The notes beneath the pieces are model-generated. The model saw nothing but the letters and a program-made list of their open reading frames with translations, was not told the DNA's origin and did no database searches. A DNA stretch of 64,000 nucleotides from a bacterium (GTDB lineage Bacteria; Babelota; Babeliae; Babelales; JAUWHS01): assembly GCA_043818275.1 (NCBI GenBank), contig JBDRFY010000050.1, positions 5,387 to 69,386 of the forward strand. The letters are read 5' to 3'. Made by a program: the position numbers and the translations under genes. Below are positions 7,194-62,449 of this stretch, in pieces; position 1 is the first letter of the stretch, and the number at the start of each line of letters is the position of its first letter.

Positions 7194-8618
7194 TTAATTT
7201 TTAAAAATAATAGCAGAACCATCTTTAATTCTTGAAACACCTTTTCCTAATTCAATTGCAGATCGAAGTCTTTCTTCATTTAAAATATCAAGAAGATCAA
7301 AGCGTGTTAACATTAAATCATCAATAATTGACCTGTGATGACCTGAATCAACAATAATTGGAATACCAAATTCCGGAATAATATTACTTGTAAACCCAAC
7401 AGCTTCAAGTTCTATTGCTTCCACCGCAAATCTATTTTTTGCGGTACTACTTGAAGCATCCCAGATTGGATCACCAGAAACCTGCAATTTATTCGCACCA
7501 AGATACGAATTTTCAATGACTATAAATGCATCTGCCTGATTATTAACTTTTACAATCACATCATCAAAAATTATTCTGGCTATTCCGTTTGTAGACGTCA
7601 GATAAATAAAATTTGTTGCGAAATTTATTACCGGAACTTTTCCTTTTTCCAGTTGAGCTTTCGCATCCGAAGTTTCAATCGGCGATCGAAGCACAAAATC
7701 AAAATGTAAAACATTGTCTCCCGTTTCTGCATAATTTAAAAATCCATTAAACCATACATTATTTTCAAGTAATCTGAACGTGTTATCCAGACTTTCAATA
7801 TAAAATGACATACCTGTACTTTTTTCAATATTAACTGCCGTATTCCCAACCAGACCAAGCGCACCTATAACATTTCCTGATGTTTGATAAGCAAAATATT
7901 CAAGTCCCGTTAATTCAATATTTTGTAAAGCTAAAGTTCCTAAACCAAGATTAAACATTGGAGTATTTGTTGGATCAGCAGGAGTAAATTTCAAACGTTT
8001 TTGTCCACCTATTCCCATTATAGTAAATACATTTTGACCTGTAATCTGAAATTTGCCTCTCGTAAATGTAATACTTTCATCCAATCCCCAAACAACATTT
8101 TCTCCAAAAATAAGTTGCGATGAATCAGACATTAAAGAAAAAGTTTTTTGAGTTATTCCTAACATTTTTATGTTATTTAATATAACGTATTTTCCAGGAG
8201 AAATAATAAATTGAGGATTCAATGATCCGGCAAAAATAAGAGTCGAGCCATTTCCATCTATATAAGTGTTTGTTCCAAATTCAAAAGATTCATCGGGACC
8301 AACAAAACCACTTTCTCCTATTACAGTAGGATGACTACTTGTCGCAGAATAATCTGGATATGGAGCCATGTTATAAGATATTATAACTCCATCAGGATAA
8401 GCCTCTTCCCAATTTACAGGATAATCTCCAGTTGCTTTTACAATAGAAGCATGACTCCAGCCAAACTGACGGCCATCACCTGTATATTTCAATCTAACAC
8501 TTGAGTCTGGTTTTAAAGCCAAAGAAGAACTCATACTGGAAAAATCCAAAACTCCTTCAGCTGCATTTAAATTTCCAATTAACAAAAAACAACAAAGAAA
8601 AAAACTAATTTTTTTCAT
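7194..8618 (-). CDS. Secreted beta-solenoid-like protein, seventh (terminal) member of the array; L-type N-terminal module but no propeller
   Basis: Signal peptide MKKISFFLCCFLLIGNLNAAEG. SSSLALKPDSSVRLKYTGDGRQFGWSHASI aligns with the L-type N-termini. IDGNGSTLIFAGS...FIISPGKYVILNNIKMLGI...SQLIFGENVVWGLDESITFTRGKFQITG is colinear with the shared C-module. Confidence 0.85.
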   Translation of the reverse strand: MKKISFFLCCFLLIGNLNAAEGVLDFSSMSSSLALKPDSSVRLKYTGDGRQFGWSHASIVKATGDYPVNWEEAYPDGVIISYNMAPYPDYSATSSHPTVIGESGFVGPDESFEFGTNTYIDGNGSTLIFAGSLNPQFIISPGKYVILNNIKMLGITQKTFSLMSDSSQLIFGENVVWGLDESITFTRGKFQITGQNVFTIMGIGGQKRLKFTPADPTNTPMFNLGLGTLALQNIELTGLEYFAYQTSGNVIGALGLVGNTAVNIEKSTGMSFYIESLDNTFRLLENNVWFNGFLNYAETGDNVLHFDFVLRSPIETSDAKAQLEKGKVPVINFATNFIYLTSTNGIARIIFDDVIVKVNNQADAFIVIENSYLGANKLQVSGDPIWDASSSTAKNRFAVEAIELEAVGFTSNIIPEFGIPIIVDSGHHRSIIDDLMLTRFDLLDILNEERLRSAIELGKGVSRIKDGSAIIFKN

Positions 8619-8665
8619 AAACGTCCTTTCTCCTTTTATTTTTATTTTTATAAAAAATTTTAATT

Positions 8666-10846
8666 TTATGCCGGATTATAATCAACAAATCCCAATGTAT
8701 CGACAAGAGCTCCGGATAAAACATAAGCATCCAAATTATTTTGAGAATTAATTCCATCACCAAAAGTTATGGCCGAACCGGTATTAAGATTAGAATTTGG
8801 TATACCGCCATCTAAATTAATTAAATTAACATTATTATTCATAATTAATTTACCTTTTGTCAGCAAAACACCATTTGTATCAGCGGGAGCAGAAAATGTT
8901 GAACCATTTAAATAAATACTCGATACTTCATCTTTCATTTCAATTAAATTTCTATTTTTATTTCTAGGAGCAAAAGAAAATGTTGTATCAAGATCAAAAC
9001 AAAGACAAGCATGTGGGTTGATAATTAATGGTCTGTCTGATTCAAAAATAAATTTTGATGTTCCCGTAAAGGTAACATCATCGTAAACAAAAATTGTTCC
9101 CTGGGTAAATGTATAATTTCCGGACATTGCAATTTCAACATCCTTGAAAACTAACTGACTGTCAGGAGCAAGCATTACAAAGCTTGGATTAGTCAAAGTC
9201 TGAATATTTTTAATTTTCATATTTTTTAAAGTTACTGTAACACCACTATCAACTATTAAATGAGCATTATTATCAAAAACTAAAGTTCCGTTTCTACCAT
9301 CAAGAATCGTGTTACTTGTAAATTTAAGGCCTGCATTTGGATAAATACCAACATTACCGCCAAAAACAATCGCCTTATCATGTCCACTTATAGAACCACC
9401 AGATTTAAAATATGAACTTGAAGAAAGTTTTAAATCTGCCTGCAAAATCATTGTTCCACCATTCAAATCAATAGGAGAAGCAACAGCCACATGAATACCA
9501 ATATAAATTAACGCATCATTATCAAGAGTGATTCCTCTCATCTTACAATAATCGGCAACCTCACTTGCTCCATAATCAAAAACAAAATCTTCGGCAAATT
9601 TTCTAAAATCTGGCAATTCAGTAAAATAATTTTCCCCGGATCTTATTGCGCCACCAACCATTCTATACCAGTCATCCCGAATAGAATCATGCATCCATAC
9701 TTCACCATAATATCCGGCCTCAAGAAAATCAATTGTAACTTTTTGAGGTCTTAAAATATATTCTTTGCCTCCCACTCCATCATCAAGAATTACCATTCTG
9801 TTTGCATTGTAAAGAGTCCCATAAAGATCATAAATGGTTTGTGGCAAATATGGTTCATTAACATTTGCCCAAATTGACCCTTCTTCTCCAACAGAAATAT
9901 TACCTAAATAATTTGAAGTTAATGTCATAACCTGAGATGTTAAACGATCAACAGCTTTTAAATCTATTTTTTCCCATGTATCCAAATCAGGATTCCATTT
10001 AACCAGGCTTCTGTCTGTTCCTGTTCCGGTTGCAGTTGTATCGGTTGAGCGAATTCCAAAAACTAAACCATCACCACCAACAGATAAAGACTGTTGTACC
10101 AAATGTTCATCAAGTGTATTTGGATACCAACTACCCTTTGACTGATCATTCCATCTCAAACCATTCCATTGGTAAACTTTGGGATTTAGTGAACCATCGT
10201 GACCAATTGCCCAAACATGATCTCTGTGTCCAATCGCAATTCGCCAAAAACGGGTAAAATCTGATGTTGGACTTGGCATAACTTCCCAGGATAAAGTTAA
10301 TCTGTTCCACTTATATGAAACACCAGAGCTATCAATCCCCCACAAAGATCCATCTTTACCGGCAGAAATTTTATACATACCGTTAGTTACAAGCTTCCAT
10401 GGAAAATCTTGTCCGGGAATTTGTGTATAACCATTTACATCATAAATATATAAAAGATTATTTTTTACTCCCCAAATTTCAGACGCTCCACCAATCGCAA
10501 CCTGCTCAATCCCTGTATCAGTTGCAACATTGTCATAAAAAAGAAATCCCGTTTCTGCCAGAGAACCCAAAGCCTGTTTTGCTTCATAAATAAATTCTTC
10601 ATGAACATTTCCGCCAGAATCATCTGTAAAATAATCATAATCATCCTTTGCCTCTTCCGATGATCCGTTAGCAATTGAGGCGTTACTCCATCCATACAAA
10701 TTTGAAGATGTGGGAATATTAACTTTTGAAGAAGTATCGCTTAAAACAAAACTTGAATTGGTTTGAGAAAATTGAATTTTTCCATTAACAAAAAAATTAA
10801 AAATAAATAATCCTAAAAAGATTATTTTTAATTTTATTTTAATCAT
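8666..10846 (-). CDS. Secreted large (L-type) protein 1: tectonin-like six-blade propeller + beta-solenoid-like C-module; function unknown
   Basis: Signal peptide. Six W/G blade motifs (VAIGGASEIWGV, ISAGKDGSLWGI, IAIGHRDHVWAI, LSVGGDGLVFGI, ISVGEEGSIWAN, AGYYGEVWMH). C-module: LNGGTMILQADLKLSSSS, ILDGRNGTLVFDNNAHLIVDSGVTVTLKNMKI, MSGNYTFTQGTIFVYDDVTFTGTSKFIFES. Ends in DYNPA. Confidence 0.85.
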   Translation of the reverse strand: MIKIKLKIIFLGLFIFNFFVNGKIQFSQTNSSFVLSDTSSKVNIPTSSNLYGWSNASIANGSSEEAKDDYDYFTDDSGGNVHEEFIYEAKQALGSLAETGFLFYDNVATDTGIEQVAIGGASEIWGVKNNLLYIYDVNGYTQIPGQDFPWKLVTNGMYKISAGKDGSLWGIDSSGVSYKWNRLTLSWEVMPSPTSDFTRFWRIAIGHRDHVWAIGHDGSLNPKVYQWNGLRWNDQSKGSWYPNTLDEHLVQQSLSVGGDGLVFGIRSTDTTATGTGTDRSLVKWNPDLDTWEKIDLKAVDRLTSQVMTLTSNYLGNISVGEEGSIWANVNEPYLPQTIYDLYGTLYNANRMVILDDGVGGKEYILRPQKVTIDFLEAGYYGEVWMHDSIRDDWYRMVGGAIRSGENYFTELPDFRKFAEDFVFDYGASEVADYCKMRGITLDNDALIYIGIHVAVASPIDLNGGTMILQADLKLSSSSYFKSGGSISGHDKAIVFGGNVGIYPNAGLKFTSNTILDGRNGTLVFDNNAHLIVDSGVTVTLKNMKIKNIQTLTNPSFVMLAPDSQLVFKDVEIAMSGNYTFTQGTIFVYDDVTFTGTSKFIFESDRPLIINPHACLCFDLDTTFSFAPRNKNRNLIEMKDEVSSIYLNGSTFSAPADTNGVLLTKGKLIMNNNVNLINLDGGIPNSNLNTGSAITFGDGINSQNNLDAYVLSGALVDTLGFVDYNPA

Positions 10847-10875
10847 TACCCACCTTATTTTTTTATTTTTAAAAA

Positions 10876-12144
10876 TTAATCGGTATTACAGCCATATATT
10901 CTTCCATATGTTTCTATTTTGCATCCCGATAAAATTTCCATATCAATATCATTTCTTGGATCTGAACCATCACCCCACTGGATTACAGGATAATAAGGAA
11001 CATTTGGAAAAGGAAACAGAGAAAATGTCCATGTATCTGGAATACTTCCATCATTTTTCAGGCATTCCAAAATAACTCTGTTATTAAAAATAACTGTCCC
11101 TTTAGTCAACACAATTCCACCAACATCTTTTAGAACTCCCAGAGCGGGCCACTCATTTCCAGCGGCTGGATAACTTAAATAAAGTTGAATTGTATCTACA
11201 GGAATCTGAACTCTACAATTATTAAAAAATAAGCGGGAAGACCTGTCTGCCATCACCAATTTTTTTTGGGACAAATCCATAATCCAAAGACTACCCAGCC
11301 ACAAATATTCACATGGCTGATGATATTTAAAAATTGTTCCAACATCCATCATAAAAGTTGAATTAGGCGCAATTTGCATCACGCCCTGGAAATATGGATA
11401 TAAATTAGGATGTTTCCAATATGTTGCAAATGCAAACATTTTATTTTCACCACGAACTCTTACATCGTTGTAAATATAAAGACTTCCATAATCAAAAGAA
11501 TAAGTATCACTTAAATCTAAAATCACATCATCTAAAGAAATTTTCGATGTATTGGACTGAGTCGCTATTCCTCCTCCATTTATATAAGCAGCCCCACCCT
11601 TTAGATTTTTTACAACTGCATTTTTTATCATAAAATTATTAGAACCAATAATAATTAATTGAGCCGCGTCTTCCAAATATAATTCGTTTCCCTGCATATC
11701 AATTGTTATATCATTTAATAATCTAATTTTTCTGTTTGCAGGAATTGTTAAATTTCCATGACAAATTATACTGTTACCATTTCCTTTAATATAAACTGTA
11801 GAGCCCGCAGCAGCACCAATTTGCAAATCAACTGAAGAACCGATATGTAAATCAGAAAGTAGACCAATCTGAGCACCAGAATCCAATCTAATTGAACCAT
11901 TTCTAATTGGACACGCAAGACCAAGATTTACAGTACAAGTTGGGTCAACATGCAAACCATATTGATAATCAACCATTCCCCAAACATCATAAGTTCCACC
12001 ACCAGCTGTTGTGTATTGCTCTTCTGAACCCAATGCATAAACGGTATTACTTCCTATTGCGTTAGAAGTGTTTAAGGCATCAAGAGAATAAAAAAGAATT
12101 AATAAATTTATTAAAAACAACAAAACAAATTTATTTTTTATCAT
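10876..12144 (-). CDS. Secreted small (S-type) protein 1: beta-solenoid-like module only; function unknown
   Basis: Signal peptide followed by conserved LNTSNAIGSNTVYAL. IRNGSIRLDSGAQIGLLSDLHIGSS, ITIDMQGNELYLEDAAQLII and SDTYSFDYGSLYIYNDVRVRG are colinear with the L-type C-module. Confidence 0.85.
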   Translation of the reverse strand: MIKNKFVLLFLINLLILFYSLDALNTSNAIGSNTVYALGSEEQYTTAGGGTYDVWGMVDYQYGLHVDPTCTVNLGLACPIRNGSIRLDSGAQIGLLSDLHIGSSVDLQIGAAAGSTVYIKGNGNSIICHGNLTIPANRKIRLLNDITIDMQGNELYLEDAAQLIIIGSNNFMIKNAVVKNLKGGAAYINGGGIATQSNTSKISLDDVILDLSDTYSFDYGSLYIYNDVRVRGENKMFAFATYWKHPNLYPYFQGVMQIAPNSTFMMDVGTIFKYHQPCEYLWLGSLWIMDLSQKKLVMADRSSRLFFNNCRVQIPVDTIQLYLSYPAAGNEWPALGVLKDVGGIVLTKGTVIFNNRVILECLKNDGSIPDTWTFSLFPFPNVPYYPVIQWGDGSDPRNDIDMEILSGCKIETYGRIYGCNTD

Positions 12145-12176
12145 AACTACTCACCTTTATTAATCTTAATGTTCCT

Positions 12177-12332
12177 CCCCGCTCGTCCTGAGCGAAGTCG
12201 AAGGATATCGAGCGACAAGCTAAAAACAACCAATTATTTAATGTAGAATTAAACTTTATATTGTTCATTTCAATAATTTTATTTCATTTAGTTTACCGCT
12301 CGTAATCCTTCGACTACGCTCAGGACGAGCGG
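12177..12332. repeat. GC-rich inverted-repeat element (family A) in the only long intergenic gap of the array
   Basis: Left copy ccccgctcgtcctgagcgaagtcgaaggatatcgagcg (12177..12214). Right copy ccgctcgtaatccttcgactacgctcaggacgagcgg (12296..12332) is its near reverse complement. An AT-rich spacer of about 80 nt separates them. Confidence 0.8.
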
Positions 12333-12423
12333 ATAGAGTTAATATTCTATGAATAAAGATACATTATGGCATAACATCAACTCACAAAATAATATCTCTA
12401 TAACTTTCAAATAATCAACCCTA

Positions 12424-14541
12424 TTAATTTGGATTGTAATCCAAATACCCTGCAATGTTCACCATAGCGCCCGAAAGCACTTTGGTATCAACACTGTTTT
12501 CTGCTGCACCATCTCCCAAAGTTATTGCTTTATTTATATCGGTATTTGGAATTCCATTATTTAAATTTTTCAGATTAACGTAATTGTCAAAAACCATAGT
12601 TCCTTTTGTAAGCAATATTCCATTGTAAGTTCCATTAGCAGGAGCAGCAAAAGTAGATTGATCCAAATATAAAACAGATGTCGCGTCGCTTAATTTAAAT
12701 AAATCTCTCGCTCCAGAATTTGGAACATAGGACAATGTTGTACCCAAATCAAAATAAATAGTTGAATGTGGATTAATAAACCACGGCATATTTGATTCAT
12801 AAATAAGTTTTGAAGTACCTGTTATTTTTAAATCATCATCTAAAAATAAAACCCCTTGAGTAAATGTATAATCTCCGGAAAGTTCAATCTCAACATTTTG
12901 AAAAGATAAAAAACTATTTTCAGACATTTCAATAACTGAATTGGCTGCATCCTGCAAACCTTTAAGAACTAAATTTCTTAATGATAATGTGACACCATTA
13001 TCAATTTTTAATTTCGCGTTTTTATGCAAAGTTAAAGCGGCTCCTAAACCATCAATTACTGTTGTATCTGTAAATTGTAAACTTTGATTTTCATAAAGAG
13101 ACAAATCATTTCCCAGAAAAATTGCATACCCAGAACCTGCAATTTTTCCGCCGGTCATAATGTAAGTTGTTGAAGAAAAATAAAGATCCGATTGCAATTG
13201 CATTGTTCCACCATTAAGTGACAATGGAGATTCTAATGCTTCAGGAGCTACCCAAATTGTTTCCGGATCTTCTAATGTTGTATCAGAATTTGTAGTAAAA
13301 CCTTCTTCTTCGTGATAACCAGAAGGAACAGATCTTAATCCTGTCATAGAAGTTATGTTTGGCATTTGAGCCAAATAATTAATAACAGAACGAATAACTC
13401 CACCAACCAATCTATACCAATAACTTAGGTAAGGATCAAAACACCATGCATCACCATAATAACCCATCTCAGTCAATGACGTTTCTTTTCTAACCTCAGT
13501 CAAAATTGCCGAGTAAGGAGCTGTTTTGGAAAGTTTTTCCAGTTTATAAAAAATAGGATAAGGCGAACCACCTGGTGTAATAATTATTCCAATATTATCT
13601 CTACGTCCAACAGAAATATTATCTATTGTGTGACCTGATAATCCTAAAGATACTTCATTCCAGGCTTCTGTTGTCCGGTCCCAAATTACTAATTTATCTC
13701 CCCCTGCATCACCATGAACACCTAAAATAATTATATCAATTAACCCATCTCCACCAACTGAAATTGATTTATCCGGATACAAAGCGCCCACACTTCTGTC
13801 TATCCACTGATTTGATTCATTGTGCCAATTATAAACATAATAAGTTGGACCACCATAATTTACCCCGAGTGCCCAAATATGATTTTTATCACAAACAGAC
13901 AAATCAAAAAAATCATTAATTGCCCCGGGGACAGGTTTTGCTATCCATGTTAAATTTTTGTCATCCCAGGCGTAAGGAGCTCCCGAAGTCAAACCACCAT
14001 AAGCTCCGCCAATTCCCCAGACAGTATTTTCTCTTCCCGCGGAAAGTAATAAAGGCGCGTCTCCTTTTTCATGCCATGGAAATTTTTGATCTTCAATCTG
14101 AGTTTCACCATCAATATCAATAAAATAAAATTTACTACCCTTTATTGCCCAAACATTTGCCGCCGAGCCAACACTAATTTGACTTACATCTCCACCCCAG
14201 GCTTTATCGTAATAAGGAATACCCGCCAAATTAAAAGAATTCAAATAAGACCTTGCTTCAAAAACATATTCTTTTTTTAACCTTAATGAATCAAGAGCAT
14301 TAAAAACAGTCTGATCTTTATAATTAACTATTCTGTCCGGTTCGGTAAATTCAACAAGTGTGCCACCTTTCCATCCAATTAAAGAACTTCCGTTTGCCAG
14401 ACAAAATTGCGATGTTGTGTCACTTAAAACCAAACTTGATGAAATATTTGAAAAAGGAGTTTTATATTCCTGCAACGCATTAAGTGAAAAAAATGAGATC
14501 AGACTTAACGCAAAAAGATTTATTTGAAATATTCCTTTCAT
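12424..14541 (-). CDS. Secreted large (L-type) protein 2: tectonin-like propeller + beta-solenoid-like C-module
   Basis: Signal peptide. Blades ISVGSAANVWAI, LSAGRENTVWGI, LSVCDKNHIWAL, ISVGGDGL, ISVGRRDNIGII, MGYYGDAWCF. C-module LNGGTMQLQSDLYFSSTT, LSGDYTFTQGVLFLDDDLKITGTSKLIYES. Ends in DYNPN. Confidence 0.85.
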   Translation of the reverse strand: MKGIFQINLFALSLISFFSLNALQEYKTPFSNISSSLVLSDTTSQFCLANGSSLIGWKGGTLVEFTEPDRIVNYKDQTVFNALDSLRLKKEYVFEARSYLNSFNLAGIPYYDKAWGGDVSQISVGSAANVWAIKGSKFYFIDIDGETQIEDQKFPWHEKGDAPLLLSAGRENTVWGIGGAYGGLTSGAPYAWDDKNLTWIAKPVPGAINDFFDLSVCDKNHIWALGVNYGGPTYYVYNWHNESNQWIDRSVGALYPDKSISVGGDGLIDIIILGVHGDAGGDKLVIWDRTTEAWNEVSLGLSGHTIDNISVGRRDNIGIIITPGGSPYPIFYKLEKLSKTAPYSAILTEVRKETSLTEMGYYGDAWCFDPYLSYWYRLVGGVIRSVINYLAQMPNITSMTGLRSVPSGYHEEEGFTTNSDTTLEDPETIWVAPEALESPLSLNGGTMQLQSDLYFSSTTYIMTGGKIAGSGYAIFLGNDLSLYENQSLQFTDTTVIDGLGAALTLHKNAKLKIDNGVTLSLRNLVLKGLQDAANSVIEMSENSFLSFQNVEIELSGDYTFTQGVLFLDDDLKITGTSKLIYESNMPWFINPHSTIYFDLGTTLSYVPNSGARDLFKLSDATSVLYLDQSTFAAPANGTYNGILLTKGTMVFDNYVNLKNLNNGIPNTDINKAITLGDGAAENSVDTKVLSGAMVNIAGYLDYNPN

Positions 14542-14585
14542 CCTTGCGCCCCTTTTTATAAAAATTTATTGGGCAAATTTTTTAT

Positions 14586-15716
14586 TTACACAAAATTTGC
14601 TTTTGTTACAACCAAGCTTCCAAAGATTTCTACTCTTACATCAGATAAAGCTTTTAAATTTAAATTAACCATGCCGCTTGTATCCTGAACATTTCCCCAA
14701 ATTATTCCTTTTTGAGGATCATTATTAACATAACCACAAGTATAATTGCTAAAGGTGACTTTATTTTCCAAAATTAAAGATCCATTTTTTAAAAATAATC
14801 CTGAATAATTTGTTAGATCAGAAGGAACACTCAAAACAGCATCACTTAATCTAAGAACAGACGATGTATCTTTGAAAATTAAATTTTCTCTACATTGTGT
14901 AGTAACTGAAGAGCAATAGTCATACTCAAATATTGAATTTCTTTCAAAATTCAACCAGGATTCATTAGCGATTACAATTGGTTTTTGATTTGGATAATCA
15001 TAAATAGACGACCTTTTAAACTTAAATCCATCACCCCAAACCCAGACATCATCATGAATAAATAACCAGCCCTGATCCAAATCATAATCATTTTGCAAAT
15101 CAATAATCACATTTTGCAGGCAAAGCGCTGAACTGTTATCAACAAAACTAATTCCACCTACACCACTCGCATTACCATATAAACCGGTTAGTATCATATT
15201 TCTTAAAGTTAAAGTAACTCCACTATCAACAATTAATTGTGAGCCTGATCCAATATTTAAATAATTTCCTTTACAATCAATTATTGCATTGCTTTCAATA
15301 AATTTTAAATTTCTGTTATCCGGAATATTAAGTCCATTATCACACAGAAGAACTCCTTCATTTCCAATAAAATAAGCGGTATCACCCCCTGATGTACCAA
15401 TAGTAAATTTTAATGTTGAACCAATATCCAAATCTGTTAATAATTCCAAAACTGAACCATCTGAAAGTTTTATTTCTCCGCCTTTAATTGGGGACGCAAG
15501 ACCCAAACCCAAAGTAACAGAAGAGTTAACACTAAAACCATCCTGATATGTGACAAAACCCCAAACATCATTTGAAGCGCTATAAACTTCTTGTGGTGTT
15601 AAAGCATACACAGTATTACTTCCACGGGCATTTGAAGTATTTAAAGAAAATAAATTAAAAGAAAAAATAAAACATAAAACAAAAAAACTTAAAAAAAATT
15701 TATTAAGCTGGATCAT
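14586..15716 (-). CDS. Secreted small (S-type) protein 2
   Basis: Signal peptide + LNTSNARGSNTVYAL. IKGGEIKLSDGSVLELLTDLDIGST, IIDCKGNYLNIGSGSQLIVDSGVTLTLRNMIL. Its ATG lies inside the last 14 nt of the upstream L gene. Confidence 0.85.
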   Translation of the reverse strand: MIQLNKFFLSFFVLCFIFSFNLFSLNTSNARGSNTVYALTPQEVYSASNDVWGFVTYQDGFSVNSSVTLGLGLASPIKGGEIKLSDGSVLELLTDLDIGSTLKFTIGTSGGDTAYFIGNEGVLLCDNGLNIPDNRNLKFIESNAIIDCKGNYLNIGSGSQLIVDSGVTLTLRNMILTGLYGNASGVGGISFVDNSSALCLQNVIIDLQNDYDLDQGWLFIHDDVWVWGDGFKFKRSSIYDYPNQKPIVIANESWLNFERNSIFEYDYCSSVTTQCRENLIFKDTSSVLRLSDAVLSVPSDLTNYSGLFLKNGSLILENKVTFSNYTCGYVNNDPQKGIIWGNVQDTSGMVNLNLKALSDVRVEIFGSLVVTKANFV

Positions 15717-17868
15717 AATTTAAATATCCTTCTATTTCAACAAAAGCCCCTGAAAGAACTTTTGTATCAACATTATTTGAATCGGTTGCGCCATCTCCCA
15801 AAGTAATTGCTTTATTTATATCCGCATTAGGAGTAGTTCCATTTAAATTTTTTAATACAACTTTATTATCAAAAATTAATTTGCCTGCGGTTAATTGAAT
15901 ACCATTATGAACGGCATTACATGGAGCAGAAAAAATACATCCGTTCAAATAAATATTCGAAGATGCGTCAGACATTTGCAATAAAGTTCTGCTTCCATTT
16001 GTCGGAACATAAGAAAATGTTGTTCCCAAATCAAAATAAAAAGTTGCAAAACGATTAATGTTAGATTGTTCTTTAGATTCATAAATAAATTTACTCGTTC
16101 CTGTTATTATTACATCATCATCTATAAGTAATCCACCCTGAGTAAATGTATAATCTCCTGAAAGAGCAACTTCTATATCCTGCAAACCCAACTTACTTGT
16201 TGAATCCAACATCACAATTCCAGGATTCACGCCACTTTTTAAATTTCTTAATTCCAGATTTCTTAAACTTAAAGTTGACAACCTATCAATAATTAACTGT
16301 GCGTTATCTTCAAGAATTAAAGAATGGCCTTTTCCATCTATAATTGTTGATGAAGTAAATCTTAATGATTCACCTGAAGGAATTGTTAAATTTCCACCAA
16401 GTTTTATTGCTCCACCTCTTCCATCGATTCTACCACCGGTATAAAGTCTGGTTGTTGAAGACCACAAAAGATCACCATCCAAAATCAAAGTTCCACCATT
16501 TAAACTAATCGGAGAATTTATACTTGTACCAGGTCCTGTGGTAATTATAGAATCAGGATCCAAATCCAAACCTTTCGTACTTACAAGACCATTAATTTCA
16601 TATTCCCCACTCAAAACGCTTAAAATAAATTCTAAAAATAATGAATCTGGTAAATCTGCAATGAAATTTGCAAGTGATCTGATGTTTCCACCAATTAATC
16701 TATAACATTTTTCTGTTCTTGGATTTTTAAACCAGATATCGCCGTAATAGCCAACTTCAGGATCTATAAGATTATCTTTGATCCAAATTAAATTTGCAGT
16801 AAACGGTGGTGCGTTATTTATGTCTTTTAATTTATAACCTTTATATAAATGAGAAACACTTCCATCAACTTCTATCTTTTGAAGATCAACAATAATACCA
16901 ACCATATCGTAATTCGGACTAACAATTTGAACAATTTTATAATTATCAAATTCTAAAAACTCTGATGGAATAGGAATGGATACAGTCTTCCAGGTACTAT
17001 CATTAATATCATATCTGACAATTCCATTATTCAATATTCCCCAGGCTATATGATCTGCGCCAATATCCATAATTTGTCCATAACCTGTTGGTGAAGATCC
17101 GGCCGAAGCATCTATCCAGGAAGCCGATTCTTCATTCCATCTATAAGGTTTTGTTGTTGTTGGACTGGTAATCGAAGTTGCCCAAATCTCATATTTGTCT
17201 CCAACAAAAACTCTCTCAAAATTGGTAAAGCCTGTAATTCCTGTTGGAGCAAGTTCATTCCAGGTTTCATTTTCAAAATCATATCTATAAATTCTTCCCG
17301 CTGTAAAACCTGGTTGCGTTGTTCCGGCAACACCGCATAAAATTCCACTTCTGCCGCGCGCAATGTTTTTTAATGGGGCCGCTCCTTTATCATGCCAAGG
17401 AAAAACTGCAATCGGCGCAATTGCAAAACAATTTTTGTCTATTTCATAATAATGACTGTCAGTATCAATTAATGACATCTGGTTAATTCCGCCAATCGCA
17501 TAACTTATTGGAGCTTCAACACCCTGCAAGCGTGTAAAAAAGAAACTTCCTGTTGTGTTCATACAATTTAATCCATCCTCCACTCCGTAAATTAAATCCG
17601 GATCAATACCTGTATAATCAACCCGGGGAGGATATGAATCATCTGTTACAACTCCTCTAAATTCATAAATTGGATCCCGTAGTCCAACAACAGATAAATT
17701 TTTCCATCCAATTAAATGAGAACCAACACAATGTCTTAAAATTGCTTTTTCAGTTAAACCCAAAGCCGCATCAACATTAGAAAAGCAAACTCGTGCATAA
17801 AGAGAATTATTAAAAATTGTTAAAACAAAGCCAAGAAGAAGCAGATAAAAAAATGTTTTAATCTTCAC
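15703..17868 (-). CDS. Secreted large (L-type) protein 3: tectonin-like propeller + beta-solenoid-like C-module
   Basis: Signal peptide. Blades YAIGGINQMSLI, IARGRSGILCGV, VFVGDKYEIWAT, MDIGADHIAWGI, VGYYGDIWFK. C-module LNGGTLILDGDLLWSSTT, IIDGKGHSLILEDNAQLIIDRLSTLSLRNLEL, LSGDYTFTQGGLLIDDDVIITGTSKFIYES. Ends in NYDPA. Confidence 0.85.
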   Translation of the reverse strand: MKIKTFFYLLLLGFVLTIFNNSLYARVCFSNVDAALGLTEKAILRHCVGSHLIGWKNLSVVGLRDPIYEFRGVVTDDSYPPRVDYTGIDPDLIYGVEDGLNCMNTTGSFFFTRLQGVEAPISYAIGGINQMSLIDTDSHYYEIDKNCFAIAPIAVFPWHDKGAAPLKNIARGRSGILCGVAGTTQPGFTAGRIYRYDFENETWNELAPTGITGFTNFERVFVGDKYEIWATSITSPTTTKPYRWNEESASWIDASAGSSPTGYGQIMDIGADHIAWGILNNGIVRYDINDSTWKTVSIPIPSEFLEFDNYKIVQIVSPNYDMVGIIVDLQKIEVDGSVSHLYKGYKLKDINNAPPFTANLIWIKDNLIDPEVGYYGDIWFKNPRTEKCYRLIGGNIRSLANFIADLPDSLFLEFILSVLSGEYEINGLVSTKGLDLDPDSIITTGPGTSINSPISLNGGTLILDGDLLWSSTTRLYTGGRIDGRGGAIKLGGNLTIPSGESLRFTSSTIIDGKGHSLILEDNAQLIIDRLSTLSLRNLELRNLKSGVNPGIVMLDSTSKLGLQDIEVALSGDYTFTQGGLLIDDDVIITGTSKFIYESKEQSNINRFATFYFDLGTTFSYVPTNGSRTLLQMSDASSNIYLNGCIFSAPCNAVHNGIQLTAGKLIFDNKVVLKNLNGTTPNADINKAITLGDGATDSNNVDTKVLSGAFVEIEGYLNYDPA

Positions 17869-17901
17869 TCTCTTCCCCCTTTTTAAAAAGGTATTTCTAT
17901 A

Positions 17902-19038
17902 TTAATAATAATTATAATAATTTAAACTTCCGTGAATATCGATTCGACAACCACTCAGTGCAAAAACATTAAGATCTTCAGGCGGACGACCAAAAGTTAT
18001 GCCTTTAGCCTCCTGGGTATTTGGCCAACCATTAACAGCGCTGTAATTACTAAAAGTCACTCTATTTTCTAAAATTAATTTTCCTAACCATAATTCTAAA
18101 CCGCTATAATTACTGTAAGCGGGAACGCTTAAAGTTGAACCATTAAGATACAATGTTGAAGAAGTATCTGTCATAATTAATTGTTGTCTACATTCATTTC
18201 CAATTGATGATTGATGATCGTAAACAAAATTTATCCCTGAATCAAAATAAAGAGTTGAGTCGTCACAAATTCTTAAATAAGCCTGCAAAGCATCGTCTGA
18301 TGAATGAACAAAATAACGAGGAATACTATCGGTACAAATAACATCACCATGAACACTTCCGGTAAAAAGAACATCTTCATGAATAAAAAGAGAGCCAACA
18401 TCAAAAGTATAACTTCCATTAATATCAACTTTAACATTTTGTAACGCCAAAGAACTTGTTTCATCAGTCAACACTATTCCACCTGATGTTGAAGCCTGAC
18501 CATGCAAATTTTTTAAACATAAATTACGTAATGTTAAAGTTGCAGATGAATCAACAATAAATTGAAACCCTGAATCCAAAAAAACAGAATTACTTTGACC
18601 ATCAATAATTGTGTCATTCAAAATATATAAACTGCTGCTCGCAGGTAAAATAGCATCTCCATGTAAAAATAACGCTCCTTTATTCCCCTTTAAATTAGCA
18701 ACTCCATTTATAGAGATATCATTACTGGATGAACTAGATAAATGCAAATCAGCTAATAATTCAATGGTCGCAATATTATCTAAAATAACATTTCCCCCTT
18801 TTACATGAGGAACAATCCCAAGTTTAAGCGTAGTATTTGGTAAAATATAAAAACCTGCATTGTAATTTACCCAACCCCAAACTTCCGAATTTATATTATA
18901 GTACTCAATTGCACTTAAAGCATAAACGGTATTACTTCCCTTTGCATTTGAAGTATTTAAAGAAAAAATATTTTTTGAAGTAAAAAAAAGAAAAAATAAA
19001 AAGATAAAATTTTTTATATAGAACAATTTAAGAGTCAT
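17902..19038 (-). CDS. Secreted small (S-type) protein 3, first gene of the array
   Basis: The ORF runs to 19107, but MTLKLFYIKNF at 19038 is preceded by AAGGAG. Signal peptide + LNTSNAKGSNTVYAL. IIDGQSNSVFLDSGFQFIVDSSATLTLRNLCL. Confidence 0.85.
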   Translation of the reverse strand: MTLKLFYIKNFIFLFFLFFTSKNIFSLNTSNAKGSNTVYALSAIEYYNINSEVWGWVNYNAGFYILPNTTLKLGIVPHVKGGNVILDNIATIELLADLHLSSSSSNDISINGVANLKGNKGALFLHGDAILPASSSLYILNDTIIDGQSNSVFLDSGFQFIVDSSATLTLRNLCLKNLHGQASTSGGIVLTDETSSLALQNVKVDINGSYTFDVGSLFIHEDVLFTGSVHGDVICTDSIPRYFVHSSDDALQAYLRICDDSTLYFDSGINFVYDHQSSIGNECRQQLIMTDTSSTLYLNGSTLSVPAYSNYSGLELWLGKLILENRVTFSNYSAVNGWPNTQEAKGITFGRPPEDLNVFALSGCRIDIHGSLNYYNYY

Positions 19039-19089
19039 GATCTCCTTTGCTCCCCTGCTAGAACCAAACTCCTTTCTAGAATACCTGTA

Positions 19090-19118
19090 ATTGTCACAAA
19101 AGAACAATTACGTGTCAA
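19090..19118 (-). promoter_or_regulatory. Candidate sigma70-type promoter for the array
   Basis: On the minus strand: TTGACA (19118..19113), a 17-nt spacer ending TGT, then GACAAT (19095..19090). It lies about 50 nt upstream of the 19038 start. Confidence 0.35.
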
Positions 19119-19257: not shown

Positions 19258-19959
19258 ATGCCAAATATAATAAAATCTTTTTTAAAAAAAGTTCTAATAA
19301 TAATTTCAATTTCCCTTGTTATCTATCTTTCTTATGTATTTATTTTCAAGCCCGACAACATACAAACAAAACTGTTAAAATCCATCACAAAAAAAGAATT
19401 GCTAAATGTTTCACGATTAAATATTCTCCCTAAAGAAATCAAAGGAAATGTCGTAACATTAAAAAGGTTTGATCTCAAATATTTTAATGATTTTCACAAA
19501 ATATTTTCCAAAGAGATTAGAAAAGCAATAGAATATCCAGAAAAAATTACTTTCGGATTTACCAAAAGCATGCTTTTGCATGACATGAAATTAGAAAGAG
19601 AGGGAAAAGGAATTTTTTATTTTATTTTTAATAACAAAGATAATAAATTAATTGGTTGGATTGAAATAAAAGATAAAAACATAGAGGATCCAGGACAATT
19701 CAGTATATCGATAAATGAAAATTATCGGGGAAAGGGGCGGGCACAAGAAGCAATACAAATAATTTCAGATATTTATTTTAAATATAAAGATGAAGATGAG
19801 TACATAGCGCATGTCAGATTATGGAATCAGAGAAGTTATAAAGCTTTAATAAAAGCCGGCTTTAAAGATGTTGACCGCTTTTACGAAGATGGAGAACCAA
19901 CACGATACATTTTAAAAATGTACAATTCACATAAAACAAAATCTGATTTTACAAAATAA
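19258..19959 (+). CDS. GNAT-family N-acetyltransferase with an N-terminal membrane anchor
   Basis: GAAAGGA RBS. N-terminal TM helix. GWIEIKD..., NENYRGKGRAQEAIQIISDIYF (acetyl-CoA motif A-like), VRLWNQRSYKALIKAGF. Confidence 0.6.
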   Translation: MPNIIKSFLKKVLIIISISLVIYLSYVFIFKPDNIQTKLLKSITKKELLNVSRLNILPKEIKGNVVTLKRFDLKYFNDFHKIFSKEIRKAIEYPEKITFGFTKSMLLHDMKLEREGKGIFYFIFNNKDNKLIGWIEIKDKNIEDPGQFSISINENYRGKGRAQEAIQIISDIYFKYKDEDEYIAHVRLWNQRSYKALIKAGFKDVDRFYEDGEPTRYILKMYNSHKTKSDFTK

Positions 19960-20028
19960 AATCAAAATTATAAATTTTATTTTGTTGAAGAAATTTTATT
20001 TTGAAATTTATTATTTTTTATAAATAGA

Positions 20029-20303
20029 GATCCTGAACTTGATTCATAACTGTCCAAAGTGTTTGAAATGTTTTAGATAAGGATAAAATTAAACTCTCCC
20101 GTTCGCCCTGAGGAGGAATTTTGAAAAAATTTCGTCTCGAAGGGTAATCCAAATAAAAAATTGATTTTATAAGGAATATCCTTCGAGACGCTCTCAATCG
20201 CTAAACGCATTTCGAGCTCCTCAGGACGAACGGATGGGGTAAAAATTTATTTTGTTTAAAGGTTTTTTATCACTTTGGACAGTTATGAATCAAGTTCAGG
20301 ATC
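20029..20303. mobile_element. Non-coding nested palindromic element (MITE-like) with perfect 33-bp terminal inverted repeats
   Basis: gatcctgaacttgattcataactgtccaaagtg (20029..20061) is the exact reverse complement of 20271..20303. An inner inverted pair, cccgttcgccctgaggagg...cgtctcgaagg (20098..20146) versus ccttcgagacg...ctcctcaggacgaacgg (20178..20234), belongs to repeat family A. No ORF. Confidence 0.75.
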
Positions 20304-20363
20304 TCTAAATTTTATATAAGCAATTCAATTTATAGTTCCAACCAAAAATTAAGGAGTCAAAAA

Positions 20364-20903
20364 ATGTCTGCAAAAAAAAATATCTTGTTTATTCTAATTC
20401 CAGATTTTCGCGATGAAGAATTTACTGTCCCTTTCAATATACTTTATGAAGCAGGTCATACAATAGATGTTGCAGGGCTGAAAGAAGGTGAGATTATTGG
20501 CGCAAATGGTTATAAACATAAAGCAGATTTTCTTTTAGATACCCTTTCACATGAAGATCTTGAAAAATATGATGTTTTAGTTATCCCTGGTGGACCTGGT
20601 TCAACCACATATTTATGGAACAATCCCAAAATTCAGGAAATAATTGAATTTTTTAATGAAAGAGGCAAAATTGTGGCAACCATTTGTTATGCATGCGTTG
20701 CCGCCGCTCAATCCGGAATTTTAAAAGGCAAAAAAGCAACTGTTTATCCAACACATGAAGCACGAAAAATCTTTGAAGAATGTGAAGTTACCTTTGATGA
20801 TGCAGGAGTTGTAACATTAAAAGATGAAAAAATAATAACTGCGCAAGGTCCAAAATTTGCAGAAGAATTTGGAACTGCAATTCTAGATATGTTAAATCAA
20901 TAA
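20364..20903 (+). CDS. DJ-1/PfpI (ThiJ) family protein
   Basis: AAGGAG RBS. YDVLVIPGGPGS and the nucleophile-elbow-like VATICYACVAAAQSG. Length is 179 aa. Confidence 0.75.
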   Translation: MSAKKNILFILIPDFRDEEFTVPFNILYEAGHTIDVAGLKEGEIIGANGYKHKADFLLDTLSHEDLEKYDVLVIPGGPGSTTYLWNNPKIQEIIEFFNERGKIVATICYACVAAAQSGILKGKKATVYPTHEARKIFEECEVTFDDAGVVTLKDEKIITAQGPKFAEEFGTAILDMLNQ

Positions 20904-23085: not shown

Positions 23086-23161
23086 GGGCCCATAGCTCAG
23101 CGGTCAGAGCAGTCGGCTCATAACCGAAAGGTCCCAGGTTCAAATCCTGGTGGGCCCACCA
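23086..23161 (+). tRNA. tRNA with a CAT anticodon (elongator Met or lysidine-type Ile2), encoded CCA
   Basis: Cloverleaf read by hand: gggccca/tgggccc acceptor stem, tagctcagcggtcagagc D arm, ctcataa anticodon loop, ccaggttcaaatcctgg T arm. It has no C1:A72 mismatch, so it is not an initiator. The C4/C5 acceptor pairs resemble Ile2. Confidence 0.9.
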
Positions 23162-23337
23162 TACTTCGCTAAAGCTTCGTATGGCGCAGCCATTTTTTAA
23201 ATGATTGATTTTGAATTTTAAAGAAACTTTCAACTTAAAAAGCGAAGTATGCCCTTCTCCGTCCTTCGCATAAAGCTTCGGAGAACTCTGCGAAGTTTGA
23301 CACGAAGCAAAGTTAGCTCGAAGAGCGAAGTAGGGCA
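23162..23337. repeat. tRNA 3' trailer module plus a block of CTTCG/CGAAG-rich GC islands (family C)
   Basis: tacttcgctaaagcttcgtatggcgcagccatttttt, then gcgaagtatgcccttctccgtccttcgcataaagcttcggag, tgcgaagtttgacacgaagc and gctcgaagagcgaagtaggg. Related strings recur at 47086..47367 and 61823..62449. Confidence 0.7.
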
Positions 23338-34717: not shown

Positions 34718-34853
34718 TTGTCATCCTGAACTCGTTTCAGGATCCACACTCAGTTAAACTAATCACAATTTTTAAAATTATAGTAAATCATTTTACAAAG
34801 CTTACCCATCAAAAATTATAAACATAGATCCTGAAATAAATTCAGGATGACAA
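34718..34853. repeat. Inverted-repeat element of the GATCCTGAA family (family B)
   Basis: ttgtcatcctgaactcgtttcaggatc (34718..34744) and gatcctgaaataaattcaggatgacaa (34827..34853) are near reverse complements. Each is itself a hairpin. The spacer is AT-rich. Confidence 0.7.
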
Positions 34854-47141: not shown

Positions 47142-47233
47142 GGAGAGATGGCTGAGTGGTCGAAAGCGCACGATTGGAAATCGTGTATGTCACGAAAGTG
47201 GCATCGAGGGTTCGAATCCCTCTCTCTCCGCCA
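47142..47233 (+). tRNA. tRNA-Ser (GGA), encoded CCA
   Basis: ggagaga/tctctcc acceptor stem, ttggaaa anticodon loop, long variable arm tatgtcacgaaagtggcatc, gagggttcgaatccctc T arm. Confidence 0.9.
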
Positions 47234-47367
47234 GTCTTCGCTCTGACGAGCTTCGCCTGGCGCGGCCAGTTTTTTAAATGAATTGATATTATTAGAAAAA
47301 GTTAGCGAAGACTGTCCGGCGAAGTAAAACTAACATTTTAAATTTCGTAGTACGAAGACGGACGGCT
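47234..47367. repeat. tRNA 3' trailer module plus family C CGAAG-rich repeats
   Basis: gtcttcgctctgacgagcttcgcctggcgcggccagtttttt, then agcgaagactgtccggcgaagt (compare agcgaaagctgtccgccgaagc at 62389) and gtacgaagacggacggc. Confidence 0.65.
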
Positions 47368-58003: not shown

Positions 58004-58213
58004 GTCCGAAGTGATTTGAAATTCTTGAATTAACTTTATTTTAGCTAAAACGCCCCACCCGCTCGTCCTGAGCTTGTCGAAGGAAATCGAGCGGGTGGGA
58101 TATAAATTCGAGCATATTAAGAGAGTTTATTAATTTTATTATTCAACTGTTCAAAATCACTTCGAACAATCCTGAACCATGGACTGAACTAGATTCAGGC
58201 TTGATTCAGGATC
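58004..58213. repeat. Nested palindromic element related to 20029..20303 (families A + B)
   Basis: Outer pair gtccgaagtgatttgaa (58004..58020) and ttcaaaatcacttcgaac (58150..58167). Core hairpin cccacccgctcg tcctgagcttgtcgaaggaaa tcgagcgggtggg (58054..58099). The right end is ttgattcaggatc (58201..58213). Confidence 0.7.
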
Positions 58214-61777: not shown

Positions 61778-61822
61778 CCAATCAGTTAAATATTTGATAA
61801 AAATAATATATTGAAATTTACA

Positions 61823-61957
61823 TGCGCCTCCCTCGACCCTTAAGGGCTCGGGACAGGTTCCGCTTCCCCCTTCGCTCTTCGAGCTTCGGAGGACAAGCAA
61901 TTGGATAAATAATTTCACCGTTCTCCCTGAGAAGCCACCATGGCATCTCGAAGGGTT
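61823..61957. repeat. GC-rich repeat block upstream of tRNA-Arg (family A and C copies)
   Basis: ccttcgctcttcgagcttcggagg (61869..61892, family C) and ccgttctccctgagaagc...atctcgaaggg (61918..61954, family A, reverse orientation). Confidence 0.65.
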
Positions 61958-61986: not shown

Positions 61987-62063
61987 GCGCCTGTAGCTCA
62001 ATTGGATAGAGTACCGGACTTCGAATCCGTTGGTTGCAGGTTCGACTCCTGCCAGGCGCGCCA
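61987..62063 (+). tRNA. tRNA-Arg (TCG), encoded CCA
   Basis: gcgcctg/caggcgc acceptor stem, cttcgaa anticodon loop, gcaggttcgactcctgc T arm. Confidence 0.9.
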
Positions 62064-62136
62064 TCCTACGCCAAGGCTTCGGATGGCAGGCCATCTTTTT
62101 TATGGAATTTTTATTACATACCTATAACTCAAATGA

Positions 62137-62200
62137 ACCCTTCGACTAGCTCAGGACTTCGAGTTTCCTAAACTCGGGGTTCACTCCCGAAGAATTGAGG
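62137..62200 (+). pseudogene. tRNA-Arg(CCT)-derived fragment (pseudo-tRNA) fused to the family A repeat core
   Basis: ccttcgac-tagctcagg-acttc-gagtttcctaaactc-ggggttcactcccgaag. It shares tagctcagg and a 15-nt exact anticodon stem-loop (gagtttcctaaactc) with the tRNA at 62236. The D arm does not close. Confidence 0.45.
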
Positions 62201-62235: not shown

Positions 62236-62312
62236 GTGCCTATAGCTCAGGTGGATAGAGCGAGAGTTTCCTAAACTCTAGGCCGCAGGTTCGAGTCCTG
62301 CTAGGCACACCA
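62236..62312 (+). tRNA. tRNA-Arg (CCT), encoded CCA
   Basis: gtgccta/taggcac acceptor stem, agagt ttcctaa actct anticodon arm, gcaggttcgagtcctgc T arm. Confidence 0.9.
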
Positions 62313-62449
62313 GCTTTCGCTAAAGCTTCAGCTGGCATGCCAAATAAATTAATGAATTTTTAAATAACTTATAAGAACCATTGATAGCGAAAGCTGTCCG
62401 CCGAAGCTCTTAAGAGCGTAGGAGGACTGGCCAAAAATTAATAAAAATT

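Follow-up and report, generated by a model that had tools for sequence, protein, structure and literature searches.

IS1397 and ISKpn1 insert into the loops of REP (BIME) hairpins, and the Nf prophage and IS110-type elements integrate into the dRS3 repeats of Neisseria. Within the IS4 family, IS10 and IS50 move by cut-and-paste. The palindromic elements of Rickettsia (RPEs) often lie in frame inside genes, and we know of no terminal inverted repeat (TIR) or IS partner for them. Bacterial MITEs derived from insertion sequences include the Correia elements of Neisseria, RUP of S. pneumoniae and MITEAba12 (reviewed in PMC3184786 and PMC10969869). The Ssn family consists of single-domain GIY-YIG nucleases of single-stranded DNA (Chenal et al. 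2025, PMC11893778); NTS/SRM hairpins (CGTCATTCCCGCGMAVGCGGGAATCYRG) flank their genes, and that study likened the resulting NTS-ssnA-NTS arrangement to IS200/605 and to REP/BIME. MITEs, hairpin-targeting IS elements, mosaic palindromic elements and Ssn/NTS are all known.

The palindrome considered here, E1, lies in a window of 64,000 nucleotides (the whole stretch of DNA that was analysed), which belongs to a Dependentiae/Babeliales MAG and has about 30% G+C. Because it has the termini of an IS4-family IS, and elements of its architecture occur in multiple copies elsewhere, E1 is very probably a MITE, i.e., a gene-less, internally replaced IS4-family derivative that moved in trans into a target palindrome (the H hairpin) and that contains a doublet of a GC-rich module (the GC core) as cargo or as a later insertion.

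Architecture of the palindrome

The initial annotation had given E1 perfect 33-bp terminal inverted repeats. This pair is exact, 20029-20061 being the reverse complement of 20271-20303 (2 matches, against 0 in 100 shuffles of the window), but the true perfect length is 37 nt (20025-20061 and 20271-20307), where chance would give none. The arms are 78% complementary across 91 nt. Arms of 26 nt (20133-20158 and 20165-20190) make a second inverted pair inside E1, and the inner inverted pair of GC-rich cores that had been described there is real (20099-20144 forward, 20180-20233 reverse). E1 measures 275-283 bp, and the sole ORF that overlaps it is a 59-aa TTG ORF. Its parts are as follows.

20025..20307, no strand: the whole palindromic element E1, including a 4-nt repeat extension, TAGA / TCTA
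20029..20046, + strand: left half of the H hairpin (GATCC-TGAA-CTTGA-TTCA), from comparison with other copies
20047..20061, + strand: core of the left terminal inverted repeat, TAACTGTCCAAAGTG; 20032-20061 (30 nt) is the stretch that matches IS ends
20099..20144, + strand: GC-core module in forward orientation, CCGTTCG-CCCTGAG-[24-nt hairpin]-TCGAAGGG
20133..20190, no strand: central hairpin of 26-nt arms, 85% complementary, with a 6-nt loop, made by the inner ends of the two cores
20180..20233, - strand: GC-core module in reverse orientation, reverse complement CCGTTCG-TCCTGAG-[33 nt]-TCGAAGGA
20271..20285, - strand: right terminal inverted repeat core CACTTTGGACAGTTA
20286..20303, - strand: right half-hairpin (TGAA-TCAAG-TTCA-GGATC), an inverted copy of the left half

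Inverted duplications can arise from metagenome assemblers, and a short contig among the IS-bearing loci described below (L021) has an exact inverted duplicate outside both ends, which would be consistent with E1 being an artefact of MAG assembly, if not a chance palindrome. However, E1 lies mid-contig between conserved syntenic genes, its arms are imperfect except at the termini, the repeat appeared in none of the shuffled windows, and the same architecture recurs in independent assemblies; a chance or artefactual origin is therefore exceedingly improbable. Palindromes of this kind break assemblies and spawn spurious ORFs, and recognizing them improves the annotation of MAGs.

Insertion in a conserved spacer

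E1 is situated between a GNAT acetyltransferase gene (19258-19959, + strand) and a DJ-1/PfpI gene (20364-20903, + strand), 60 nt upstream of the start of the latter, which is followed by hflX and gap. The contigs with the two closest DJ-1 homologues, L001/L002 (84% identical, GCA_030605785.1) and L003/L004 (79%), have the gene order of the window: a paralogous membrane-protein array, GNAT, DJ-1, HflX and GAPDH. More distant homologues of the DJ-1 of the window are labelled Candidatus Dependentiae or Babeliales.

The GNAT/DJ-1 spacer comprises 59-71 nt in L001-L004, whereas that of the window has 404 nt. The anchors on either side can be aligned, which leaves about 350 nt, with the whole of E1 among them, that only the window has. 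E1 is absent from the orthologous spacers of L001-L004, and no repeat module was found anywhere in these four loci. A comparison of insertion sites between strains had been proposed as a check in the initial annotation, and between these relatives the orthologous sites are indeed empty; since the gene order is kept and the spacer is short in the relatives, E1 is read as an insertion. In the MITE account it would have entered this spacer after the lineage of the window split from its sequenced relatives, although the relatives may instead have lost an element that the window retained. The spacer around 12179-12332, which contains another of the repeat loci, is likewise 279 nt long in the window and 33 nt in L001. 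Insertions of IS/MITE and repeat elements thus appear to remodel tight spacers, from 59-71 to 404 nt in the one case and from 33 to 279 nt in the other.

Folded as a single strand, the 275 nt of E1 give one long branched hairpin, at -135.6 kcal/mol for RNA (z = -17 versus shuffles) and with z = -13 for DNA. This very stable predicted fold, and the position just before the DJ-1 start in a spacer that relatives keep tight, would suit a functional structured ncRNA, such as the product of an sRNA gene, or a hairpin that regulates the DJ-1/HflX/GAPDH operon in cis, for example as an attenuator or a processing site. However, palindromic DNA folds well on either strand whatever its function, and E1 is missing from the spacer of both relatives, with kin elements at unrelated loci elsewhere. 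Rfam covariance models, applied at gathering and permissive thresholds, gave no match near threshold (best 25.5 bits, gathering score 60), and a promoter and terminator scan showed no excess of promoter-like sites and no terminator-like site. A regulatory or RNA function is thus very unlikely.

Related modules in the window

The initial annotation had recognized three related copies of E1. The building blocks are present at all of these loci, but the four loci are not copies of one element: a sensitive self-BLAST yielded no second full E1 copy in the window, and only short modules are in common. The repeat loci outside E1 are listed below.

12179..12332, no strand: E3, two GC cores (forward at 12179-12214, reverse at 12296-12332) forming a doublet that lacks TIRs
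34720..34851, no strand: E4, an H-hairpin doublet (GTCATCCTGAACTCGTTTCAGGATCC ... GATCCTGAAATAAATTCAGGATGAC) without TIRs, cores or ORF
58004..58213, no strand: E2, a degenerate member of the putative E1 MITE family, upstream of gatC
61916..61955, + strand: solitary GC-core module, upstream of tRNA-Arg(TCG)
62126..62165, - strand: solitary GC-core hairpin with an 8-bp closing stem, between two tRNA-Arg genes

Among the three other loci, only 58004-58213 has transposon termini in common with E1. Its inverted TIR cores (58004-58013 and 58158-58167) are 154 nt apart, and its right end (58194-58213) is H-like and rearranged. The blocks reported for this locus are present (GTCCGAAGTG and CACTTCGAAC around a single GC-core hairpin at 58054-58099), as is the hairpin itself, with a stem of 12 bp and not 13 bp as had been stated. 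E3 has 46-nt arms that are 87% complementary, and the orthologous spacer of L001, of 33 nt, does not contain it. The blocks that had been noticed at 34718-34853 (GTCATCCTGAACTCGTTTCAGGATCC and GATCCTGAAATAAATTCAGGATGAC) are also there, as two H hairpins at 34720-34745 and 34827-34851, an arrangement that elsewhere flanks Ssn-like GIY-YIG genes. All four loci are intergenic and next to gene starts, as the initial annotation had it, and lie upstream of these starts.

IS4-family termini and relatives

Our scan of metagenomes with the pattern CCTGAAN{4,6}TTYAYAMCTGTCCRAAGTG revealed 12 loci. In two of them the ends face inward and are 1.25 kb apart (L023, 109-138 and 1362-1391; L021, 64-93 and 1310-1339), with a single ORF of 390-407 aa between them; the same ORF, at 80% identity, occurs in L017. 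The three ORFs contain DUF4372 and DDE_Tnp_1 domains (58-60 bits for PF01609), and they score 170-179 bits on the NCBIfam model NF033592 'IS4 family transposase' (cut-off 115). The 30-nt end of E1 matches the ends of L021, L023 and L017 at 29 of 30 positions, the sole mismatch being an A in E1 where the IS ends have a G (GTCCAAAGTG versus GTCCGAAGTG). The autonomous, transposase-encoding partner that the initial annotation had advised looking for was therefore found, in these three metagenome loci. Its transposases share about 27% identity with plasmid-borne proteins annotated as IS4 transposases, and judged by sequence the partner is a distant IS4-family branch in Dependentiae-type genomes. 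Active-looking IS/MITE families would thus be present in the Dependentiae (TM6), a group of reduced, intracellular bacteria for which MAGs are almost the only source of knowledge.

Within the window, tblastn with the cognate transposase and with the two GIY-YIG proteins discussed below gave no match at E <= 0.1, in line with the earlier statement that no transposase ORF is present, and a laxer threshold added only chance-level matches (E > 4). The lack of a cognate transposase in the window speaks against the MITE account, as does the presence of only one intact and one degenerate copy within these 64 kb.

Elements of the same kind were found in other genomes. The pattern GATCCTGAAN{3,6}RTTCAN{3,8}GTYCRAAGTG, scanned over 185,579 representative genomes with a chance expectation of about one match (a rough calculation), identified 11 loci, the window itself not being among them. 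Five of the 11 (L006, L009, L011, L013 and L015) lie on three contigs of a single MAG, MFD01231.bin.2.11 (about 39% G+C). The first four of these are complete and have the architecture of E1, i.e., an end, a GC core in forward orientation, a GC core in reverse orientation and an end; their bodies of 251 nt are 98.0-99.6% identical and are located at unrelated loci. The body of E1 is only about 59% identical to these multi-copy elements, which implies common ends and architecture and not recent ancestry. Further members with both ends and no ORF include L018 (205 bp), L025 (274 bp), L024 and L026. What lies between the ends varies within the family: GC cores in some members, other hairpins of the GTCAT type in others, and elsewhere a GIY-YIG gene or what remains of one. 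The family is defined by its shell and not by its interior. No match to E1 was obtained by blastn in collections of phages and plasmids. Eight matches to a 19-nt terminus pattern in viral contigs were set aside as chance, all being without the CCTGAA-loop context.

The empty orthologous sites, the IS4-family termini and the four near-identical copies in another MAG together bear out the non-autonomous mobile family that the initial annotation had proposed. Its alternative label, REP-like, fits the nested hairpin modules but not the TIR-bounded shell.

A hairpin as probable insertion target

When the flanks of the copies are joined they rebuild GATCC-TGAA-N5-TTCA-GGATGAC, the H hairpin, which is also found free-standing in L007, L008 and L009 and at 34720-34851 of the window. 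This reconstruction suggests that the mobile unit starts at (TTCA)YAACTGTCCGAAGTG and inserts in the centre of the H hairpin. The copies in MFD01231.bin.2.11 lie inside a GTCATCCTGAA-loop-TTCAGGATC hairpin, and a 13-mer, TGAA-N5-TTCA, is present in direct orientation just outside each body. The two flanking 13-mers are identical in three of the four copies, with a loop that varies by locus (ATAAA or TCAAG); in L006 the body-adjacent 13-mer has two mismatches, and the exact counterpart belongs to a second right end at a distance of about 70 nt. Direct repeats of 13 nt also flank L007 and, with one mismatch, L025. Since TGAA is the complement of TTCA in a palindromic stem, the duplication is of ambiguous length, between 5 and 13 bp. 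Since the loop varies between loci while the body is 98-99.6% identical in these other copies, 20029..20046 of E1 would be derived from the target and lie outside the mobile unit.

E1 itself departs from this pattern, and the target-site duplication that was sought there, as the initial annotation had suggested, has no clean form, a further point against the MITE account. Its right half-hairpin is inverted relative to the left, with loops CTTGA and TCAAG, whereas most other family members have a direct copy. In E1, L018 and L021 a flank of the GATCC type lies outside each end, and the loops are reverse complements, unlike the direct copies that result from target duplication. The perfect identity of the E1 arms extends about 22 nt past the IS-defined terminus, into hairpin-derived and flanking sequence, yet no alignment is obtained between the arms over the adjacent 35 nt. 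The inverted flanks may reflect a recent secondary event; inverted copies may have recombined, or template switching may have taken place at a quasi-palindrome. A different definition of the terminus would be another way to account for them. Candidate target duplications of TA or TAAAT were rejected, being indistinguishable from the AT-rich background.

A mechanism can be proposed in outline. A full-length copy elsewhere would supply the DDE transposase, which would bind to the termini of about 15-19 nt ((TTCA)YAACTGTCCRAAGTG), cut out the E1 unit and insert it at the centre of an H hairpin (GTCATCCTGAA-N5-TTCAGGATC), with duplication of 5-13 bp of the hairpin. The GC-core doublet would either travel as cargo or have been inserted later. 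E1 could then be seen as three nested selfish layers, namely the target hairpin, the MITE shell and the core doublet. Mobilization in trans and the order of nesting are our reconstruction, and the cut-and-paste chemistry is presumed by analogy with IS10/IS50. The E1 family would offer a concrete case of an IS apparently landing on the recently described Ssn-type hairpin repeats.

The GC core and GIY-YIG genes

The interior of E1 is, on the basis of its sequence, not a transposase remnant but an inverted doublet of the GC core, a second palindromic module. The consensus of the core reads CGCTCR-YCCTGAG-[variable hairpin of 4-70 nt]-TCGAAGGR-(2-3 nt)-closing stem, and the window contains seven such modules (12186, 12325, 20106, 20226, 58066, 61925 and 62156). 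Closing stems vary between lineages with their pairing kept, and in one variant CC...GG is replaced by GG...CC (GGTGAG...TCGAACC); that stems differ yet stay complementary points to selection on pairing. Inverted doublets of this hairpin unit are dispersed in intergenic DNA, as E3, as the interior of E1 and in the copies of MFD01231.bin.2.11. A hammerhead-like reading of CUGAG...CGAA was dropped, as the conserved cores misfit and Rfam gave no match.

In L017, cores bracket a 98-aa GIY-YIG gene that adjoins the IS. This protein matches the UPF0213 structures 1zg2 and 1ywl (E = 6.5e-14). Six further homologues were sampled, chosen only for contig size or contig number, and at all seven of these UPF0213-like loci cores are present within about 150 nt of the ORF. 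An inverted pair of cores, forward upstream and reverse downstream, flanks the ORF at five of the seven (L017, L033, L039, L045 and L046), and this orientation is the same as in the ORF-less doublets of E3 and the E1 interior. Core density near UPF0213-like genes was about 80 times that of background DNA (regex counts, with the window's own elements included in the background). In the opposite direction, a GIY-YIG gene was near only one of 103 IMG/VR loci picked by the core motif, about 3 kb away; the association therefore holds only from gene to repeat, as in REP/RAYT.

H hairpins flank a second GIY-YIG clade (L015 type, with a PF01541 match) on both sides and in inverted orientation, in L015, L016, L049 and L051. 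This clade is 33% identical to the UPF0213-like clade. In L049 (TM6) the upstream side has a compensatory ATGCTGAA stem, and in L051 (Lacinutrix) a quite different stem lies in the same GTCAT...ATC frame. In L007/L019 a TIR-bounded element with a decayed GIY-YIG remnant is followed by the H hairpin and spacer that L015 also has. The idea that an association of GIY-YIG genes with hairpins was undescribed was rejected for the H hairpin, as it is already in Chenal et al. 2025 (PMC11893778). The published SRM string, HGTCWYN(0-2)YYVSBRHN(0-5)WNVSBRGN(0-2)RNCYNB, matches the Neisseria NTS but no H hairpin or GC core, and we therefore term the H hairpin NTS-like in layout and context.

These associations bring in another reading, in which E1 as a whole would be a REP/REPIN- or NTS/SRM-like element, spread or maintained by a small GIY-YIG nuclease of the Ssn/UPF0213 type, with IS-like termini that are incidental. 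It is consistent with the doublets of E1 and E3, which are arranged like the cores that bracket UPF0213-like genes, with E3 being on its own an insertion relative to L001, with the bracketing of a second GIY-YIG clade by H hairpins (L015, L016, L049 and L051), and with the published Ssn/NTS system (PMC11893778). However, the unit that recurs at 98-99.6% identity in MFD01231.bin.2.11 is bounded by the IS-type termini and not by cores or the H hairpin, these termini also enclose a gene for a DDE transposase, and interiors vary in a family that is defined by its shell; Ssn-type nucleases are not known to transpose their repeats. We regard an origin of the whole of E1 through a GIY-YIG nuclease as unlikely, and the IS4-derived MITE is preferred.

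A narrower proposal concerns the doublet within that MITE. We tentatively suggest that the GC core, CGCTCR-YCCTGAG-[variable hairpin]-TCGAAGGR-...GAGCG, might be the cognate repeat of a second clade of small GIY-YIG nucleases (UPF0213/YhbQ-like, distinct from Ssn), that the doublets of E3 and the E1 interior might be REPIN-like non-autonomous units propagated or maintained by that nuclease, and that E1 might record three interacting selfish systems. If so, E1 would combine an IS4-family element, Ssn-type hairpins as the sites to which it homes, and a UPF0213-type doublet as its passenger. The GC-core hairpin is very widespread, being found also in over 100 IMG/VR contigs, and confirmation of its suggested tie to UPF0213-type GIY-YIG genes would broaden the Ssn/SRM concept and add new nuclease/sequence pairs.

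Comparison with known systems

Literature searches (on Dependentiae repeats, on GIY-YIG with MITE, REP or REPIN, and with motif strings) returned no prior description of the IS/MITE family of E1 or of the GC-core motif. What is new is the IS4-family IS/MITE lineage in Dependentiae, its apparent preference for an NTS-like hairpin, and the association of the GC core with UPF0213-type GIY-YIG genes.

Like the bacterial MITEs described to date, E1 is small (275 bp), ORF-less and intergenic, has TIRs in common with an autonomous IS, differs in presence between relatives, and belongs to a family with multi-copy spread and direct repeats in another genome. It differs from them in its interior, a doublet of another repeat family and not an IS remnant, in a partner that is about 27% identical to named IS4 transposases, and in the absence of a clean target duplication at E1. 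As with IS1397/ISKpn1 and with the Nf and IS110-type elements, a dispersed palindromic hairpin would be the preferred target, with insertion at its centre. However, the partner of E1 is an IS4 DDE element, not an IS3 or IS110 one, and the duplication in the E1 family appears longer (5-13 bp, ambiguous). The target is in addition an NTS/SRM-like GTCAT...ATC hairpin, where IS1397 and ISKpn1 use the enterobacterial REP.

The resemblance to REPIN/RAYT and BIMEs (PMC3116915, PMC3337134) lies in E3 and the interior of E1, which consist of two inverted hairpin units with a short spacer, in the bracketing of a single small nuclease gene by GC-core units, and in the mosaics that the units form. In contrast to REPIN/RAYT, the gene beside the GC cores encodes a GIY-YIG nuclease and not a Y1 HUH transposase, and mobility of the GC-core doublet is inferred from one empty site only. 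The RPEs are similar as palindromic repeats of about 100-300 bp in an AT-rich intracellular genome, a likeness by description alone. The NTS/SRM-Ssn system has several traits in common with the H hairpin. The latter consists of an 8-bp stem with a short loop, preceded by GTCAT on the 5' side and followed by ATC on the 3' side; it flanks single-domain GIY-YIG genes of about 99 aa, in the range of 95-100 aa, and has ORF-less copies dispersed in intergenic DNA. The H stems differ from those of NTS/SRM in being AT-richer (ATCCTGAA), and the GC core, unlike the NTS/SRM hairpins, goes with the UPF0213-like clade represented by PDB entries 1zg2 and 1ywl.

Distribution and arrangement of GC-core modules

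The GC-core module, a GC-rich hairpin unit, was not confined to the neighbourhood of GIY-YIG nuclease genes or to Dependentiae. The pattern GCTCRYCCTGAG-N(3-33)-TCGAAGGR was found as 123 modules in 103 viral or prophage contigs of IMG/VR (L061-L163, selected by the core motif), in which a single GIY-YIG gene was detected, about 3 kb from a module. The range of the module thus reaches far beyond Dependentiae. In the window itself, solitary modules occurred at two sites near tRNA-Arg genes:

61821-61955, GC-rich non-coding block with a solitary GC-core module, upstream of tRNA-Arg(TCG)
62126-62165, hairpin with a solitary GC-core module, between both tRNA-Arg genes

At other loci the modules were grouped:

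L029 1437-1459, L046 586-1531 and L043 737-937, nested or tandem core modules

At L029 one module lies within another (CCTGA-[TCCTGAGCTTGTCGAAGGA]-TCGAAGGG), and at L046 four to five core units are arranged in tandem around a GIY-YIG gene. This combination of nesting and tandem arrays suggests that GC-core modules insert into each other or duplicate alongside each other.

Trailers of the tRNA genes

Immediately downstream of each of the window's four tRNA genes comes a conserved trailer with the pattern CCA-NNN-(C)TTCGC...AGCTTCG-NNN-TGG:

23158-23200, 47230-47275, 62060-62100 and 62309-62340, conserved tRNA trailers, directly 3' of the tRNA genes

In three of the four cases the trailer is succeeded by a short GC hairpin and a run of T, for example CCATACTTCGCTAAAGCTTCGTATGGCGCAGCCATTTTTT. 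A related small GC-rich module, GCCGTCGCTACTAAAGCAGCTGTGGCGGAC, was also observed at 6485-6521 of L007, a locus with a GIY-YIG remnant, where it is inserted within the stem of an NTS-like H hairpin.

Paralogous gene array

7194-19107, minus strand, tandem array of paralogous gene pairs with many internal repeats

Each pair comprises a product of about 375-475 aa followed by one of about 705-726 aa, in several copies, and the array is also conserved in contigs of two related genomes (L001 and L003). One paralogue gave a weak match to Tectonin.

Terminus-like sequences and element copies in other genomes

A 33-nt sequence similar to the IS terminus, GATCCTGAAGGGRGGTTCANTNAGTCCGAAGTG, is conserved at apparently one locus in three MAGs:

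L005 1727-1759, L012 2885-2917 and L014 39-71, IS-terminus-like sequence in Gallionella / Nitrosomonadales MAGs

The copies in L005 and L012 are close to the end of a gene that, judged by eye, resembles a Fis-type helix-turn-helix regulator. No transposase was found nearby at any of the three sites, and the sequence could be a solo terminus, another element or a chance resemblance. In L021, a 1,378-bp metagenome contig carrying an IS4-family IS, the segments outside both IS ends (1-63 and 1340-1378) form an exact inverted duplicate, which is either the product of misassembly or a sign that the IS lies within a larger palindrome.

The GIY-YIG gene between H hairpins at L016 (730-1023) contains an apparent in-frame stop (…KQLKR*HREW…) and may be a decaying copy. 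The interiors of the MITE copies at L020/L027, L022 and L024 carry differing GTCAT...ATC-type hairpins, such as GTCATCCTCGCGAAAGCGAGGATC and GTCATTCCCGGCTTGACCGGGAATC, the latter from the reverse strand of L024, and GTCATTGC...GCAATCC is also present among them; these genomes thus hold several NTS-like hairpin variants side by side.
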